Notes: generated by a model not told the origin, from the sequence alone. 51,742 bases of DNA from Candidatus Omnitrophota bacterium (GCA_018826075.1 JAHKAJ010000018.1:1-51742); one strand, 5' to 3'. Positions 1 through 51,120 are shown, counted from the first letter of the stretch. Numbers and translations: made by a program.

Positions 1-7
1 AGTAGAT

Positions 8-703
8 ATGCTGCCAGAGGCCTATATACCTACCAAGCCTATACGTGATGCAAGATATCTAATGAGATATCGACAAAACTTAATCTATCTGCGTACAAGC
101 ATTAAGAATAGAATACATTCAATAATTGATAATGCCGGTATCCAACAATCATTCTCAGACCTTTTCGGTAAAGGAGGTAGGCAATTCCTTATTCAATTAG
201 ACTTAAGGCAACCTTATAAATCTATAATTGATAATTACCTGTCTGTAATAGCTGACTTAACTAACCGGATAAATAAAGTCGATAGCCAATTACGCCAATC
301 TTTAAGAAAAGATAAACAAGTCCAGCTTTTAACTACTATTCCCGGCATAGGTGTTATTACCGCTCATGTAATTTTAGCCGAAACCGGAGATATCAATAGA
401 TTCCCTAATCATCATAAGTTTGCCAGATACATTGGTATAGTTCCTTCTCTGCACCAGAGCGGGCAGGTATTACATAGCGGCCATATAACTAAACAAGGTA
501 ATAAATATCTAAGAACTGCCTTTGTTGAATCAGCTCAAACAGCTATCCGTAGAGATCCTTATTTAGCGGTTAAGTTTAATAAAATAAAAGCTAAGAAAGG
601 CTATGGTGTGGCAATAGTTGCCATAGGGCATAAATTAGCTAAATCAGCATATGTGGTTTTAAAGAATAAAGAAGAATATAGGTATCGTTCTCTTAATGGG
701 TAA
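8..703 (+). CDS. IS110 family recombinase/transposase, 5'-truncated by the window edge
   Basis: TIPGIG, QSG catalytic-serine motif, GNKYLR. 23 differences in 231 aa from the copy at 2667 (manual count). Confidence 0.93.
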   Translation: MLPEAYIPTKPIRDARYLMRYRQNLIYLRTSIKNRIHSIIDNAGIQQSFSDLFGKGGRQFLIQLDLRQPYKSIIDNYLSVIADLTNRINKVDSQLRQSLRKDKQVQLLTTIPGIGVITAHVILAETGDINRFPNHHKFARYIGIVPSLHQSGQVLHSGHITKQGNKYLRTAFVESAQTAIRRDPYLAVKFNKIKAKKGYGVAIVAIGHKLAKSAYVVLKNKEEYRYRSLNG

Positions 704-830
704 GGCCGTTAACAAGTCTGGCTCAATTTAGAAGCCGTTGGATTGATTGGCATACCCTGTCATGATCATTATAGTGCGCATAAGTTCGCCTTGTGAGCGG
801 AATATAGCGCGAATAGATGAATTGGCTGAT
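698..830 (+). ncRNA. Bridge RNA/seekRNA of IS copy 1
   Basis: GGGTA/TACCC-closed stem with TAACAAGTC (710-718) and TGGATTG (739-745) matching the attC target. Second stem carries ATAGATG (813-819) matching the element's own end. Boundaries approximate. Confidence 0.8.
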
Positions 831-898
831 TTTATTTAGTTGTATTAATGCTTAGGAGGTTTTTATGTGATTCTGCTTGACAGGTGTTTTCATAGATG

Positions 899-909
899 AT
901 TTGTTATGC
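899..909 (-). other. attC inverse core (R'') and spacer of the Fic cassette, interrupted by IS copy 1
   Basis: Minus strand reads TAG-CATAAC AAAT CA. The fic stop codon overlaps GCATAAC, the usual position for a cassette ORF stop. Confidence 0.8.
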
Positions 910-2255
910 TATTTTTTAAAAAGCTCTTTTATCTTCTCGGTGGCAAAATAGCATGCCTTTTTCCGATTTCTTTTTAAAAAAACAAAATTTTGCTCTAGTA
1001 AATTTTGCAAATCTCTAATAGCTGTACTTTTAGAAATCTGATAATGATTCATGTGCATTGTTGGGGTTGTATACTCATCTTCATTTTCGTAATAATATTG
1101 TAAAAGTTGTATCTGACGCTCATTCAAATCGTAGTTGGATTTTGCTTTCATATTCATTCTTTTGTTTCTATAAGATACTTTTTGTATGTATCTCTCAAAA
1201 TCCTTCATAGCTAATTTAACCTTTCTGACATTATAGTCAATAAAATAAGTCAAATCTAAATCATCCTGTTCGCTATATACATAAGATTTAGCGTATTGAG
1301 AAGGAGATTTTCTAATCATTGTTGATATAGGAAGATATGAAAACGCCCAATAACCTTTACTTAATAGGTACCAGTAAAATATTAAACGAGCTAATCTTCC
1401 ATTGCCATCAGTAAATGGATGTAAGTATCCAACCCAAAAGTGTAACATAATTGCTTTGATTACTGGGTGAAGGAAATGACCTTCTGAACTGTCGTTAGCA
1501 AAATCTATAAAGCGTTTAATTTCGCTTTCCACAAAGGTAATTTTTGGAGGCGTGTGGTATGTAAATTGCCCTAAGGTATCTTCAACTACAATATTATCGC
1601 TATCTTTTCTAAAACAGAATAATTCTTTTTTCGAAACAGTATTTTTTACAATCATTGAGTGTAGTTCAAACAATAGATCTATGCCTAATGGTTTATTTTT
1701 GAAATCTTCTTTAATAGCTTTCATGGAGTTGTAATTATTTAAAATCATGTGTTCGTTTTCCGTATGTGGTTTTCTTCCCTCAGAAAGAAATTTCTTGGCG
1801 AGCTTACGCGTTGTGCTCGCGCCTTCGAGTTGTGATGAAGCGATAGCTTCTTCAATTATTCCACGGGAAATAAATTTCATTTCATTTTTTTCATCTATAT
1901 CAGAACCGCTTAAAGATAAATGTCCTCCTGTATTTAAGTCTATTCTGTGAATGAATTCCTCCAGTTTTGGTAAATGCGCATACCAACGAAAAAACTTACC
2001 GTCTTCATTCATTATTACAGTGGGAGATGATTTAAGCCATCGAGAGAATTTAATTGCTGCCCATATTTTTTCGATGGGAGCCTTAGAGGAAAACTTTTTG
2101 TATTTTATTTTATCCCAATACAAGTAAGAAGGGTGCGATGTTTCAAATAGAATTTGATCAAAATTATTTTTTTCTTTTTCAAACATGTAATCAAAAATTT
2201 CTTTTTGATCAAATATTGAAATATCAGGTTTTTCTAAAATGTATGGTTGAGACAT
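909..2255 (-). CDS. Fic family protein (class II-like) with C-terminal HTH
   Basis: HPFTDGNGRLAR catalytic motif, N-terminal SSQLEG inhibitory motif, C-terminal ISKSTAIRDLQNL HTH. Confidence 0.92.
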   Translation of the reverse strand: MSQPYILEKPDISIFDQKEIFDYMFEKEKNNFDQILFETSHPSYLYWDKIKYKKFSSKAPIEKIWAAIKFSRWLKSSPTVIMNEDGKFFRWYAHLPKLEEFIHRIDLNTGGHLSLSGSDIDEKNEMKFISRGIIEEAIASSQLEGASTTRKLAKKFLSEGRKPHTENEHMILNNYNSMKAIKEDFKNKPLGIDLLFELHSMIVKNTVSKKELFCFRKDSDNIVVEDTLGQFTYHTPPKITFVESEIKRFIDFANDSSEGHFLHPVIKAIMLHFWVGYLHPFTDGNGRLARLIFYWYLLSKGYWAFSYLPISTMIRKSPSQYAKSYVYSEQDDLDLTYFIDYNVRKVKLAMKDFERYIQKVSYRNKRMNMKAKSNYDLNERQIQLLQYYYENEDEYTTPTMHMNHYQISKSTAIRDLQNLLEQNFVFLKRNRKKACYFATEKIKELFKK

Positions 2256-2269
2256 AGCTTATGTGATTT

Positions 2270-2445
2270 TAGGTGTCATTGTTGTTCATTTGACACCTAA
2301 ATAATAACATATAGACATTTTTTTGTCAAGATGAGTTTCTTTGACACCTATATGACACTTATACGAGACTCATTTCGGGGGGCGATAATAGAGATTTCGT
2401 ATTATAGGTGTCATTGATATCTATATGACACCTATTTGACACCTA
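2270..2445. repeat. Cluster of TGACACCTA 9-mers in direct and inverted orientation
   Basis: Inverted copies 2270-2278 and 2405-2413. Direct copies at 2291, 2342, 2426 and 2437. Variants at 2353 and 2415. Confidence 0.85.
2301..2329 (-). promoter_or_regulatory. sigma70 promoter of fic
   Basis: Minus strand TTGACA-17 bp-TATTAT with TGn extension. Confidence 0.75.
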
Positions 2446-2452
2446 TTTTCGT

Positions 2453-2523
2453 GTATAACATAGAAATCAGCGGCTGGACGAACCCGCGAACCTAGAGAGC
2501 AGCAAATACAGTCCGCTGGATTG
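2453..2523 (-). other. attC site (L'', L', R'); its R'' is displaced to 3868-3878 by IS copy 2
   Basis: Reconstructed 82-bp minus-strand site: GTCTAAC aaagc AATCCAGCGGACTG...CAGCCGCTGATT tctat GTTATAC. Contains the two unpaired bases (extra C and A on the top strand) typical of attC. Confidence 0.9.
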
Positions 2524-2666
2524 ATAGTATGAAAACGCCTCCTGTCAGCGGGTCGTGCCAGACCTCGTAGAACGAGGTACAATATTTACGAGCTCGTAAG
2601 GACAGGCCTTACGGCTCACTAGGTTTAACCTAAACGGCCTCTTCGCCGCTAAACCAGGAGGTGTAT

Positions 2667-3680
2667 ATGCATTACATTGGTGTTGACCAGCACAAGAAAT
2701 ACAGCTACGTAGTTGTAAAAGATCAACGAGGCACTAAGCTTAATCAAGTAAAATTATACCACGCAGATAAGGAGAATATGAAGGATTATTTTAAGGCTAT
2801 ACCGGAAGGCTCAATTGTAGCCCTGGAAACCTGCGGTTTTGACCATTGGCTGACCGATATGTTTGGAGAGCTGGGCCTATCGGTGAAGCTGTCTCATACT
2901 GCTAAGACTAAGGCTATTGCCGAGGAGAGAATCAAAACCGACAAGATAAGCGCTTCTGTATTAGCTGATTTACTTAGAGTAGACATGCTGCCAGAGGCAT
3001 ATGTACCTACTAAGCCTATACGTGATGCAAGATACCTAATGAGATACAGACAAAACTTAATCTATTTACGTACCAGTATTAAGAATAGGGTACACTCAAT
3101 ACTAGATAATTCCGGCATCCAACAATCTTTTAGCGATCTATTCGGTAAACAAGGTAAGCAATTCCTTATTCAGTTAGATCTAAAACAACCTTATAAGTCT
3201 ATAATTGATAATTACCTGTCGGTAATAGATGATTTAACCGGCAGAATTAATAAAGTCGACAACCAATTACGTCAGAAACTAAAGAAGGATAAACAAGCAC
3301 AGCTCTTAACTACTATTCCAGGAATCGGAGTTATTAGTGCTCATGTGATTCTTTCCGAAGTAGGCGATATTAACCGATTTCCTAATCACCATAAGTTTGC
3401 CAGGTATATCGGCATAGTGCCTTCCTTGCATCAGAGCGGTCAGATACTCTACCATGGCCATATAACCAAGCAAGGCAACAAGTACCTAAGAACTGCTTTT
3501 GTTGAATCTGCTCAAACCGCAATAAGAAGAGACCCTTATTTAGCGGTTAAGTTTAATAAGATTAAAGCCAAAAAAGGCTATGGAGTAGCTATTGTGGCTA
3601 TAGGGCATAAGCTGGCTAAATCAGCTTTTGTTGTTCTAAAGAAGCAATGTGAGTATAGATATCGTTCTCTTAATGGGTAA
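2667..3680 (+). CDS. IS110 family recombinase (RuvC-like N-terminal domain plus Tnp domain)
   Basis: YIGVDQHK, VALET, KTDKISA, QSG. Start moved to ATG 2667, 5 nt after AGGAGG. Confidence 0.95.
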   Translation: MHYIGVDQHKKYSYVVVKDQRGTKLNQVKLYHADKENMKDYFKAIPEGSIVALETCGFDHWLTDMFGELGLSVKLSHTAKTKAIAEERIKTDKISASVLADLLRVDMLPEAYVPTKPIRDARYLMRYRQNLIYLRTSIKNRVHSILDNSGIQQSFSDLFGKQGKQFLIQLDLKQPYKSIIDNYLSVIDDLTGRINKVDNQLRQKLKKDKQAQLLTTIPGIGVISAHVILSEVGDINRFPNHHKFARYIGIVPSLHQSGQILYHGHITKQGNKYLRTAFVESAQTAIRRDPYLAVKFNKIKAKKGYGVAIVAIGHKLAKSAFVVLKKQCEYRYRSLNG

Positions 3681-3805
3681 GGCTGTTAACAAAGCTGGCT
3701 AGATATAAGCCGTTGGATTGATTGGCATACCCGGTCATGATCATTATAGTGCGCATAAGTCCGCTCTTTACGCGGAATATAGCGCGAATAGATGAATTGG
3801 CTAAT
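3675..3805 (+). ncRNA. Bridge RNA/seekRNA of IS copy 2
   Basis: TAACAAAGC (3687-3695) is the reverse complement of the right target flank 3867-3875. TGGATTG (3714-3720) equals the left flank 2517-2523. ATAGATG (3788-3794) equals the donor end. Confidence 0.85.
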
Positions 3806-3871
3806 TTATTATTTAATTCAGAAGGAGGTTTTTATGTGACTCTGCTTGACAAGCGTTTTCATAGATGCTTT

Positions 3872-3906
3872 GTTAGACATTTTTTATTCATTTTATTATG
3901 TCTAAC
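3872..3906 (-). other. Minimal ORF-less cassette GTTAGAC-21 nt-GTCTAAC
   Basis: Perfectly complementary core and inverse-core pair 21 nt apart; the inverse core belongs to the IS-split attC. Confidence 0.6.
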
Positions 3907-3971
3907 AATTAATATCCGACCATTTTGATTTATGGGTTAGAGGTAAGATAGGGCCGTTTGCCCTTAAAATT

Positions 3972-4000
3972 AATATACCTCTAAAAGTGAATAAATTCAA
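3972..4000 (-). promoter_or_regulatory. Pc-like sigma70 promoter facing the cassette array
   Basis: Minus strand TTGAAT-17-TATATT; near-identical copy at 51018-51046. Confidence 0.65.
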
Positions 4001-4159
4001 GCCTTTTAAGTTTTTTTGAAAAATTCTGAAAGAATTTTACTTTCCAAAACGTCTGCATATATGGAGATAGCCATAAAAAAGGATGATCCGGACATCCTAA
4101 AAGAGGTTGAGAAACCGGCCGCAGTATGGTATCTTATTAGCGGTACAAAGGATTGAATC

Positions 4160-4915
4160 ATGAAGCAAGCTAAAGCCCAAGTCAAAGAAGCGGTTAAAAT
4201 AAAGAGTAATATTTACCTTCTGAAAATCCATTCGCCTTATTTGGCTAAAAAATCACAACCCGGCCAATTTCTCCATTTGAAAATAAGTTCGGTAATCCTG
4301 CGGCGGCCTTTTAGTATTCACAAGGTAGAAGGCAATACAGTTTTTATTCTGTTTCGGGTTCGCGGCCGGGGCACTAAAGCTCTTTCGCAGATTAAAAAGG
4401 GAAAAGTTTTAGACATCATCGGTCCCCTGGGTAAAGGGTTTGATTTCAAAAATAACCGGGAAAATATTTTAATAGCCGGAGGGATCGGAGTCGCTCCTTT
4501 AGTTTTTCTGGCCCAAAAATTAAAAGGAACTAAAAATTTAGTTTTGTTAGGCGCTAAAAATAAATCCGAAGTTATTTGCGAGAACGAATTTAAGAAATTA
4601 GGTTTTGCGGTAAAATTAGCCACTGACGACGGCTCGCGCGGTTACAAAGGTACAGCAATCAGTTTGTTAAAACATATTCTACGGACGACGGACGACGGAC
4701 GACGGACGACGATTTACGCTTGTGGCCCCAAAGAGATGTTTTTAGAAATAAGTAAAGTTTTAAAAAAGTACCCGCGGATTAACTGCCAGGTTTCCTTTGA
4801 GCAGTTTATGGGCTGCGGCTTAGGCATTTGCTGTGCCTGTGTGATTGAAACCAAGAATGGATATCAGAAAGTCTGTAAAGATGGCCCAGTATTTGACATT
4901 AAAGATATATGGTAA
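4160..4915 (+). CDS. pyrK: Dihydroorotate dehydrogenase electron transfer subunit
   Basis: LRRPFS, AGGIG, CGP, MGCGLGICCAC...VCKDGPVF. Confidence 0.93.
   Translation: MKQAKAQVKEAVKIKSNIYLLKIHSPYLAKKSQPGQFLHLKISSVILRRPFSIHKVEGNTVFILFRVRGRGTKALSQIKKGKVLDIIGPLGKGFDFKNNRENILIAGGIGVAPLVFLAQKLKGTKNLVLLGAKNKSEVICENEFKKLGFAVKLATDDGSRGYKGTAISLLKHILRTTDDGRRTTIYACGPKEMFLEISKVLKKYPRINCQVSFEQFMGCGLGICCACVIETKNGYQKVCKDGPVFDIKDIW
4681..4712 (+). repeat. Tandem heptamer (ACGGACG)x4 inside pyrK
   Basis: acggacg acggacg acggacg acggacg acga, encoding RTTDDGRRTT. Confidence 0.9.
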
Positions 4916-49323: not shown

Positions 49324-50253
49324 ATGCTAAATATGCCGACAGCCAATAAAGATAATTCTTTTCGTTCAGGGTTTGTAGTCATTTTAGGCCGTCCCAATGT
49401 AGGTAAATCCACCTTGCTTAATACCCTGGTTGAAAGCAAGGTCAGTATTGTTTCAGCTATTCCTCAAACCACGCGTCACCAGATAAGAGGGGTATTGAAC
49501 TTAAAAAATGCCCAGGCAGTTTTCGTGGATACGCCGGGAATCCATTCTTTTAAGGATAGCTTGAGTTCCCAACTTAACTTAGTAGCCAAAAAATCAATCG
49601 AAGGCTGCGATTTGATCATCTATTTGGTTGATGTTTCTCGCCGGCCGGGGCTGGAAGAAAAAGAGGTAGTAAAAATCATTACCGCCCAAAAAATAAAAGC
49701 TTTGATGGTTTTAAATAAAATTGACCGGGGAGTAAAATTTCTTAACGATTATATCTCTTTATGGCAGGAAGGAAAAAACACATCCCCGGAAAATCTAATC
49801 TACTATATACCACTTTCTGCTAAGACTGGAAAGAACCTGGATAAGCTTAAAACTGCTATTATTGAGAATCTGCCGGCAGGCCCTAAATATTATGATACCA
49901 AAACCCTTACTGATTTTCCCGATAAGTTCAGAGTTGCTGATATAATCCGCGAAAAATTATTTCGTAAATTAGATAAAGAACTGCCACATTCCTTAGCTGT
50001 GGAAGTGGCTGAAATCAAAGATAAGAAAAAGGTTGTTTACATTAAGGCAAATATCTATGTTAAACGAAACTCTCAGAAGAGAATAGTGGTCGGTAAAAAC
50101 GGCGAGAGCCTTAAAACTGTCGGCGTTCAGGCCCGCTCGGAATTGGAAAAGATGTACGATAAGAAGGTTTTCTTAGATATCTGGGTTACGGTTTTAAAAG
50201 ACTGGCCAGAGCGCCCGCGAATAATCGAACAGTTGGGTTACAGCGCCGAGTAA
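49324..50253 (+). CDS. era: GTPase Era
   Basis: GRPNVGKS, QTTR, DTPG, NKID, KH domain. Confidence 0.96.
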   Translation: MLNMPTANKDNSFRSGFVVILGRPNVGKSTLLNTLVESKVSIVSAIPQTTRHQIRGVLNLKNAQAVFVDTPGIHSFKDSLSSQLNLVAKKSIEGCDLIIYLVDVSRRPGLEEKEVVKIITAQKIKALMVLNKIDRGVKFLNDYISLWQEGKNTSPENLIYYIPLSAKTGKNLDKLKTAIIENLPAGPKYYDTKTLTDFPDKFRVADIIREKLFRKLDKELPHSLAVEVAEIKDKKKVVYIKANIYVKRNSQKRIVVGKNGESLKTVGVQARSELEKMYDKKVFLDIWVTVLKDWPERPRIIEQLGYSAE

Positions 50254-50263
50254 AGAGTCTTAC

Positions 50264-50318
50264 ATCTAACACAAAAATCAGCCGCCTCTGCGAAGCCCGC
50301 CAGATTGCTTTGTTAGAT
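50264..50318 (-). other. Orphan attC-like site
   Basis: Minus strand ATCTAAC aaagc AATCTGGC...GCTGATT tttgt GTTAGAT. Cores are perfectly complementary and the layout matches the array attC; the inner stem is imperfect. Confidence 0.65.
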
Positions 50319-51000: not shown

Positions 51001-51017
51001 TTTTTCCCTCAAATGTT

Positions 51018-51046
51018 AATATACTCCTAAAAGTCAATAAATTCAA
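51018..51046 (-). promoter_or_regulatory. sigma70 promoter of the pilin gene
   Basis: Minus strand TTGAAT-17-TATATT. Confidence 0.65.
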
Positions 51047-51120
51047 GCCGGAAAAGTATTATTTGAAATCAGAGTGATTATGGAATACAATGAGCAATTA
51101 ACATAATCAGGGTAAAAGAT

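Follow-up and report, generated by a model that had tools for sequence, protein, structure and literature searches.

Guide RNAs predicted in the right ends of IS1111-type elements match probable attC targets in a Candidatus Omnitrophota genome

Introduction

Can RNA-guided insertion sequences (ISs) that share one genome come to read different variants of the same target? The question is raised by a 51,742-nucleotide contig of Candidatus Omnitrophota bacterium (GCA_018826075.1, JAHKAJ010000018.1:1-51742), here called the window, which carries two elements of the IS110/IS1111 family, copy 1 and copy 2, inserted in sites that resemble integron attC sites. The genome to which it belongs, as contig C25, measures 1.5 Mb in 36 contigs and is 92.7% complete; this small genome is that of an uncultured groundwater bacterium. 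A first-pass annotation had proposed that the two copies encode recombinases guided by RNA from their right ends and naturally reprogrammed toward different attC variants. Our analysis indicates that they are very probably IS1111-type elements with a two-domain guide RNA that directs insertion into integron attC sites. For the difference between the two guides, retuning and neutral drift have about equal odds.

Guide RNAs of this kind have been described before. According to the parts of Siddiquee et al. (2024; PMC11187229) drawn on here, the sequence that follows the transposase gene in IS1111 members, among them the attC-targeting ISKpn4 and ISPst6, gives rise to a seekRNA, and in members including ISKpn4 the match of this RNA to the top strand of the target lies 5' of its match to the bottom strand. 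ISPa25, with a transposase 46% identical, shares target and guide segments with ISKpn4. The seekRNA is reprogrammable, and RNA guidance was demonstrated experimentally for attC-targeting relatives. The same source presents ISEc11 and ISXne4 as a natural redirection, with transposases 72% identical and the same target base at 3 of 13 positions. In the portion of Durrant et al. (2024; PMC11208160) used here, 93.0% of IS1111 elements are predicted to carry, in the right end, a bridge RNA that has both a target and a donor loop. A third source, also drawn on in part, places ISPa21 and ISPst6 near the attC 5' end, antisense to cassette transcription (PMC3001079). By these portions of the literature, seekRNA or bridge RNA in IS1111 right ends, attC-targeting IS1111 elements and natural reprogramming are already published (PMC11187229, PMC11208160). 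What is new here is the lineage and its host, and the elements are rare in the searches made.

Results

Two IS1111-type elements with defined ends

Copy 2 is a complete element of 1344 bp (2524..3867, plus strand), whose boundaries were derived from five left and five right junctions in the genome. The left-end junctions lie on contigs C4, C13, C15, C18 and C25, and the right ends on C25 (two), C16 (one) and C36 (two). Since TG is the only sequence common to both junction types, the element was placed at 2524-3867 with a TG core on each side. Insertion is site-specific: all ten junctions, five left and five right, mark one and the same point in sites of one type, and there is no long target duplication. 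The transposase, a predicted bridge recombinase of 337 aa (2667..3680, plus strand), has an N-terminal Pfam DEDD_Tnp_IS110 domain (PF01548, 52 bits) and a C-terminal Transposase_20 domain (PF02371, 92.5 bits), and passes the NCBIfam model NF033542, 'IS110 family RNA-guided transposase' (237 bits, cut-off 140). The layout is that of IS1111, with a right non-coding end of 187 nt (3681-3867) exceeding the left one of 143 nt (2524-2666, plus strand). Subterminal inverted repeats of at least 10 bp lie at 2529-2538 (ATGAAAACGC) and 3853-3862 (GCGTTTTCAT).

Copy 1 (1-898, plus strand) is truncated by the start of the contig, with its left end and left flank lost. It retains the C-terminal 233 aa of a transposase that lacks its N-terminus (2..703, plus strand; Transposase_20, 97.1 bits) and ends in ATAGATG (892..898, plus strand), with the TG core at 897-898, an end that aligns with the four other right ends. 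Over these 233 aa, copy 1 is 90% identical to copy 2, in keeping with the earlier estimate, and the copy on C16 is 91% identical to it. Nucleotide identity is 82% between copies 1 and 2, 83% between copy 2 and the C16 copy, and 88.5% between copy 1 and the C16 copy. Judged by their sequences, both copies in the window are IS1111-type insertion sequences of the IS110/IS1111 family with DEDD transposases, and the genome holds about five copies from at least three sublineages.

Right ends carry matches to both flanks and to the element's own end

The putative right-target guide of copy 2, TAACAAAGC (3687-3695), is the exact reverse complement of the flank GCTTTGTTA (3867-3875). The putative left-target guide, TGGATTG (3714-3720), equals the left flank plus the TG core (2517-2523), so that in this right end the 9-nt top-strand match lies 5' of the 7-nt bottom-strand match. 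The putative left-donor guide, ATAGATG (3788-3794), equals the last 7 bases of the element (3861-3867). Copy 1 has the same arrangement, with TGGATTG at 739-745 and ATAGATG at 813-819, the latter identical to its end at 892-898. Its right-target guide TAACAAGTC (710-718) is paired with the different flank GATTTGTTA (898-906) at 8 of 9 positions, with one G-T wobble. The guide, flank and end strings named in the first-pass annotation were thus all found in place. We evaluated the copy 2 matches against 200,000 mononucleotide shuffles of its right end. The 9-mer arose in 100 shuffles, TGGATTG in 4,400 and ATAGATG in 3,973, while all three together arose in none.

The matches lie in a conserved RNA structure

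The predicted bridge RNA or seekRNA of copy 2 spans 3675..3801 (plus strand), with a folding energy of -42.2 kcal/mol (z = -2.61), and is defined by consensus structure and covariation; that of copy 1 was mapped by alignment columns to 698..826 (plus strand) and scores 151.1 bits with the covariance model R1. We aligned seven such sequences: three from this genome, two from metagenome contigs (L143 and L144) and two from the genomes of relatives (G054 and G423). Protein identity of these relatives is 86% for L143, 72% for L144 and 67% each for G054 and G423. The RNAalifold consensus of the seven sequences reproduced the layout proposed earlier, namely guide, hairpin and guide, followed by a second stem-loop domain.

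In copy 2, the target domain (3675-3732) consists of a closing stem, an internal loop and a hairpin (3696-3712). The right-target guide lies on the 5' strand of the loop (TTAACAAAGC) and the left-target guide on its 3' strand (TTGGATTGAT). The donor domain (3734-3801) repeats this build, with a candidate right-donor guide at 3743-3747, stems at 3750-3786 and the left-donor guide at 3788-3794, on a 3' strand that carries AATAGATGAAT.

With the guide strands kept unpaired, the consensus has 25 pairs, and 98.8% of the alignment cells are paired. Seven of the 25 pairs are changed on both sides, and the observed values were reached in 0 of 500 shuffles. When partners were slid by 1-3 columns, pairing fell to 26-40%. 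The distal hairpin of the second domain is compensatory among the copies of this genome, reading CCGC/GCGG in copy 2, TCGC/GCGG in copy 1 and CTGA/TCAG in the C16 copy. Hairpin loops vary between copies and the stems are kept, as the earlier reading had it.

The first RNA stem overlaps the stop codon of the transposase gene, and hence the RNA is probably processed from the 3' end of the transposase transcript. A promoter scan found none convincing for the RNA (7 sites, 4.4 expected). The covariance model of the right end, a construction that the first-pass annotation had suggested, found all three assembled copies here, seven places in G423 and one in G054; it found no match in the other 150 genomes of a class sample of 151. 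Searched against Rfam at E <= 1, positions 1-4200 matched IS605-orfB-I alone, at chance level.

The seventh G423 copy (L162, G423:C1:1761621-1761719) has an RNA region that is broken after about 99 nt by unrelated sequence encoding another transposase-like open reading frame (ORF). A weak match to the RNA model (L156, G003:C16:33546-33655; 26.9 bits, E 0.007), in a genome whose nearest transposase is 45% identical, may be a diverged bridge RNA or a chance hit.

Guides change with flanks and ends among relatives

To compare guides with flanks and ends, we tabulated 12 insertions from five lineages, the twelfth of which (L014, the element of G054) was compared by eye. The left-donor guide, ATAGATG or ATGGATG, is identical to the element's own last seven bases in 12/12 insertions; the ATGGATG form of L144, L014 and G423 may stem from one ancestral change. 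The left-target guide TGGATTG stands opposite a TGGATTG flank in copy 2, L143 and L144. In G423 the guide reads TGTAGTG, and so does the flank in five of six copies (TGGAGTG in the sixth), so that two substitutions are mirrored between guide and target. In L014, guide and flank match at 5 of 7 positions.

The right-target guide is composed of TAACAA and three further bases. TAACAA pairs with TTGTTA in all insertions, and as both are invariant, covariation is untestable for that part. Of the other three positions, g9 faces the G of the core (11 Watson-Crick pairs and 1 wobble), g8 the first flank base and g7 the second. At g8 there are 10 Watson-Crick pairs, formed both as G-C (two) and as T-A (eight), and 2 mismatches, in L144 and L014. 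At g7 we counted 6 Watson-Crick pairs, 2 wobbles and 4 mismatches. Hence the covariation between guides and flanks that had been predicted for homologs was found for the left-target guide (in G423) and for the most part at g8, and the left-donor guide changes with the element's end; g7, with Watson-Crick pairs in 6/12 insertions, did not follow. Taken over the relatives, the sequences in these positions appear to behave as guides.

The fourth guide, that for the left end of the element, had been located only in part by the first-pass annotation. The candidate that we place is a 5-mer two bases before the stem of the second domain, ATTAT in this genome (3743-3747 in copy 2, 768-772 in copy 1), GTTAT in L143, ACTAT in L144 and GCTAT in L014 and G423. 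The left end starts with ATAGT, or with ATAAT in L143, and pairing of the 5-mer with these five bases is possible in every lineage. CATAC, in the region of 3728, was rejected as right-donor guide, being absent from L014, L143, L144 and G423 despite their same left end. Two left ends of this genome (C15:29056 and C18:189) begin with ATAACATG instead of ATAGTATG, and ATTAT would pair with 4 of their 5 bases; contig breaks leave their partner right ends unlinked.

L014 is an internally deleted copy, whose RNA may be decaying. Its transposase ends at residue 231 and lacks the C-terminal third, while both ends and the RNA are kept. Another attC-like site, which is uninterrupted and in which a GGTCTGGTG(G/A)ATTG segment is duplicated, is found 900 bp downstream. 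These features were seen at 2190-2240 and 3395-3480 of L014.

The interrupted sites resemble integron attC sites

The arm to the left of copy 2 (2453..2523, plus strand) comprises a GTATAAC R-box, a variable middle and GCTGGATTG, which ends in the TG core (2522-2523). It is built like the left flanks on C4, C13, C15 and C18. The five left flanks share an R-box-like YTAAC, ACAAAAATCAGC-like bases, a variable stretch of 40-60 nt and GCTGGATTG, and the five right flanks read NYTTGTTA followed by purine-rich bases. The right flank of copy 2, CTTTGTTAGAC (3868..3878, plus strand), holds the other R-box arm of the interrupted site (GTTAGAC, 3872-3878), and that of copy 1, ATTTGTTATGC (899..909, plus strand), the R-box arm of the site after a Fic cassette. 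In attC sites the R'' and R' boxes follow the consensus RYYYAAC / GTTRRRY, accompanied by an unpaired spacer and L boxes. The boxes GTCTAAC, ATCTAAC, GTTAGAC and GTTAGAT fit this consensus, and GTATAAC is off by one base. An uninterrupted site at 50264-50318 folds, with DNA parameters, into a 9-bp R stem, a 4x4 internal loop and an L stem.

An integron integrase (TIGR02249, cut-off 265) lies about 850 bp from the C16 copy, with 423.5 bits as an ORF and 410.8 bits in the genome search. Between the two is a 104-aa ORF in cassette orientation. This ORF and the Fic-domain ORF of the window (909..2255, minus strand; 448 aa; Pfam Fic, 56.4 bits), which sits between two occupied sites, share the minus strand, and an interrupted site follows closely on the end of each. 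Cassettes thus run along the minus strand of the window, with the elements in antisense orientation to them. On the cassette strand, four bases separate the R'' box from the insertion point, which is near the attC 5' end. G423 also encodes an integron integrase (393.6 bits), about 200 kb from the nearest cluster of copies, and four of its copies lie within 12 kb. No integron integrase was found in G054, which is 77% complete. Together, these sequence features support the identification of the targets as integron attC sites.

An era-like GTPase gene (49324-50253) precedes the uninterrupted hairpin at 50264-50318 by 10 bp. This attC-like site stands alone, outside any cassette array, carries no element and is mismatched to the left-target guide at two positions.

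Occupied sites fit the left-target guide

We counted ten sites with an exact 14-nt motif in the 5' arm, which is independent of the arm read by the guide. The left-target 7-mer was perfect in 4/4 occupied and in 1/6 unoccupied sites (one-sided Fisher 0.024), and none of the six unoccupied sites was perfect over both the 7-mer and TTGTTA. TTGTTA was perfect at all five right junctions. The site of copy 2 was excluded from the count owing to two mismatches to the 14-nt motif; its 7-mer is perfect. The bias fits guide-directed choice, although any sequence-specific mechanism predicts the same.

Copies 1 and 2 differ at two guide positions

The right-target guides of the genome differ at g7 and g8, which read GT in copy 1 and AG in copy 2 and the C16 copy. 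At the first flank base, copy 1 has A and copy 2 has C, in agreement with g8; at g7, copy 1 forms a G-T wobble only. G423 offers a comparison in which the element is nearly constant. Five of its copies are 0-4 nt apart over 1,253 bp, and a sixth, compared over its last 127 nt plus the end, agrees with them in RNA and end. All six share one guide, TAACAACTC. Three are inserted in AGTTGTTA (AG, a perfect match) and three in ACTTGTTA (AC, with a C-C mismatch at g7). As one guide occupies both AG and AC flanks, g7 does not decide the target, and the wobble of copy 1 carries no weight.

Related elements are rare in the searches made

An order-level protein search found the transposase in 10 of 85 genomes, this one included, at E <= 1e-40, with one relative above 60% identity, and a search of a phylum sample found it in 4 of 401 genomes, again counting this one, at E <= 1e-70. 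Scanning metagenomes with an alignment gave 148 pattern matches and two confirmed loci. A single-protein locus search of genome contigs gave 204 pattern matches, none of them confirmed. A 17-nt degenerate right-end pattern proved too short: among the at least 118 matches listed in genome contigs there was no right end, and neither of the two passing a loose filter was an element end.

The best plasmid-borne relatives of the transposase reach 39.6% identity (Rhizobium), and enterobacterial IS110-family hits 23-27%. With the right end as query, blastn against 72,556 plasmids at E <= 1 gave no match over more than 24% of the query and one chance-level 48-nt hit. A Klebsiella plasmid hit (27% identity) is not in an attC site, and no reference copy like ISKpn4 or ISPa21 was recognised among the plasmids. 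The IS1111-attC group of Tetu and Holmes, from 2008, was reportedly defined as a monophyletic set of transposases.

A putative junction promoter and other contexts

A TTGACA (3846..3851, plus strand) lies 16 nt from the right end of copy 2. On circularisation it would come to stand 17 nt from TAGTAT (2525-2530). Six of 7 sequences have TTGAC[A/G] at this distance from the right end, and the left end begins A-TAGTAT or A-TAATAT; the spacing of the would-be -35 and -10 elements in the circle is 17 nt, or 22 nt in G423. The circular form would thus carry a junction promoter, as described for the IS110/IS1111 family. In four runs, metagenome contigs depart from the window before 2511 and after 3877 into other sequence, and in runs X1 and X5 the right flank of copy 2 continues into other sequence after 3877. 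There the element with its nearest flanks therefore occurs in other contexts.

Repeats near the elements

A repeat of about 200 bp is found at 3900-4100 of the window, on C16 (L023, 1231-1426) and on C36 (C36:32310-32493), with identities of 85%, 73% and 80%, and part of it recurs at 51002-51068, upstream of a pilin-like gene. The C16 repeat separates the integron integrase from the first cassette. Near copy 2 a pyrK-like operon takes the place of the integrase, and on C36 the repeat is about 900 bp from the right end at the contig end. Its minus strand reads TTGACT, 17 nt, TATATT. It may be a strong promoter or an attI-like platform, present three times in a genome with one integrase.

The segment directly after copy 2, 3872-3908, holds an 11-bp inverted repeat, TTGTTAGACAT ... 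ATGTCTAACAA, whose arms match perfectly and are 17 nt apart. On the cassette strand it resembles a cassette that is nearly empty, with the attI-like region on one side and the attC site of copy 2 on the other. Upstream of the Fic gene (2256-2450), the 9-mer TGACACCTA occurs four times in direct and twice in inverted orientation (TAGGTGTCA), and these repeats look like operator sites for autoregulation.

Discussion

The anatomy of the elements, the covariation in the RNA structure, the matches of guides to flanks and ends in five lineages, the integron context and the bias in occupancy all come from direct observation. The proposal that an IS1111 right end encodes a structured guide RNA targeting attC is upheld by the Pfam and NCBIfam hits, the covariation and the integron integrase. 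In the mechanism that we infer, a DEDD recombinase gene would be followed by a structured bridge RNA or seekRNA of about 127 nt. The 5' strand of the internal loop in its first domain (TAACAA plus 3 nt) would pair with the top strand of the target to the right of the TG core, and the 3' strand, TGGATTG, with the bottom strand to the left of it. The second domain would read the joined ends of the element likewise, with ATAGATG matching the right end and ATTAT complementary to the left end. The target would be the spacer between the R'' and L'' boxes at the attC 5' end, and because the element lies antisense to the cassettes, the attC site would be split. The RNA would be produced and bound by the recombinase, the element would pass through a circular intermediate, and the difference between the guides could have a functional effect.

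Other explanations of the matches have to be considered. The repeated strings might not be guides at all, if the right end had captured a piece of its target, or if the recombinase recognised the folded attC directly and no RNA took part. The integrase IntI recognises attC sites by their structure, and the sequence was seen in DNA runs only, which would suit such a view. Nonetheless, the two matches run in opposite senses with a hairpin between them, a layout unlike an attC copy; the RNA stems covary; the left-target guide changes with the flank in G423 and the donor guide with the element's end. Moreover, in the part of the literature cited, RNA guidance has experimental backing for attC-targeting relatives (PMC11187229). 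We consider an account without guides extremely improbable. It is also conceivable that the targets are genome-specific intergenic palindromes, resembling repetitive extragenic palindromes (REP) or terminators, as for other IS1111 members. The isolated site after the era-like gene, the spread of sites over at least eight contigs, R-boxes such as GTATAAC that deviate from RYYYAAC, and the lack of a family hit in Rfam are in line with this. Against it are the integrase, well over its cut-off, which adjoins one occupied site with a cassette-oriented ORF between, the position of occupied sites after same-strand ORFs, the clustered copies and integrase of G423, and the attC-like fold of R stem, unpaired spacer and L stem. 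Single attC sites outside integrons are, besides, a recognised class. Palindromes other than attC therefore seem a distinctly unlikely target.

Insertion into attC sites guided by a two-domain RNA is therefore the explanation that we prefer, and whether its guides were retuned in copies 1 and 2 is a separate matter. That retuning is weakly supported by the sequences. Of the proposal that the pair is tuned to different attC variants, the covariation at g8 stood; the argument from g7 fell, given the wobble there and the tolerance of this position in G423. By the same mechanism, the difference between the two guides could be drift inside the tolerance for mismatches, with elements that use close-enough sites of one attC family. 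This would account for a single guide in AG and AC flanks of G423 and for the mismatches at g8 in L144 and L014. It would also explain why copy 1 sits in GATTTGTTA when its guide would fit GACTTGTTA perfectly, and why the fifth right end sits in CCTTGTTA, which is matched perfectly by no guide seen in this genome. On the other side, g8 forms Watson-Crick pairs in 10 of 12 insertions by two different base pairs, and three of three linked guide-flank pairs in this genome agree there. We rate drift within the mismatch tolerance just short of an even chance.

Several observations weigh against the account given here, in whole or in part. The sequence occurs in runs from several groundwater metagenome studies, as DNA contigs, with no RNA run among them. 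The sample of insertions is small and related, 6 of 12 being from G423, and most copies lie at contig ends, so that for four of about five copies a left end cannot be joined to its right end. The right-target guide pairs imperfectly in L143, L144, L014 and 3 of 6 G423 copies, and the candidate right-donor guide has only 5 nt and includes a U-G pair in this genome. The contigs of four runs showed no circle junction and no empty-site joint across 2524-3867, a result that says nothing either way. As to retuning, a single guide-flank position separates copy 1 from copy 2. The agreement at g8 within the genome has a probability of about 1 in 7 by chance, a rough estimate for three linked guide-flank pairs whose first flank bases are mostly C or A.

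The comparisons that follow are limited to the portions of each source cited. The elements resemble ISKpn4, ISPst6 and ISPa25 in the order of their guides and in having one end of attC as target (Siddiquee et al. 2024; PMC11187229). They differ in their host, an uncultured groundwater bacterium with a 1.5 Mb genome. With the bridge RNA of IS621 and IS110 they share two loops, one for the target and one for the donor, that is the joined ends, around a dinucleotide core, and the reading of opposite strands by the two sides of each loop (Durrant et al. 2024; PMC11208160). Unlike there, the RNA lies in the right end and not in the left, the order of guides is reversed, the subterminal inverted repeats are long (at least 10 bp), and the pairing of the right-donor guide is just 5 nt. 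The likeness to ISEc11 and ISXne4 is that stems are kept and target-matching bases change with the target (PMC11187229). In contrast to that pair, copies 1 and 2 are 90% identical, differ by 2 guide bases and 1 target base, and occur in one genome with one target family. The position near the attC 5' end and the antisense orientation are those of ISPa21 and ISPst6 (PMC3001079), a likeness of position, apart from any placement in a clade. No paper on covariation of guides with attC variants inside one genome was among those listed in our literature searches. The core also differs, being TG here and CT in IS621.

A bolder reading, which we offer as speculation and think unlikely on present evidence, is that guide change brought a lineage with no close tie to the clinical IS1111-attC group independently to the same attC position. 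Within one streamlined genome, its sublineages would then split the attC repertoire through guide bases next to the core, and every doubly perfect attC would be occupied, saturating the chromosomal integron and freezing its cassettes.

These elements add nothing to the mechanism of guidance. They do provide a clean natural data set for it, with five lineages, recombinases 67-100% identical, one RNA architecture and guides that can be read against known junctions. The six near-identical copies in the complete genome G423 identify g7, two bases from the core, as a guide position that tolerates mismatches. The three sublineages of the present genome, together with its occupied and empty attC sites, allow a simple test of how many guide mismatches it takes to block insertion. 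If retuning of copies 1 and 2 is true, it would be the finest-scale natural reprogramming for the IS110/IS1111 family. For the host, an uncultured groundwater bacterium, the finding means that RNA-guided elements would split attC sites in its chromosomal integron, and that the cassettes are probably immobilised.

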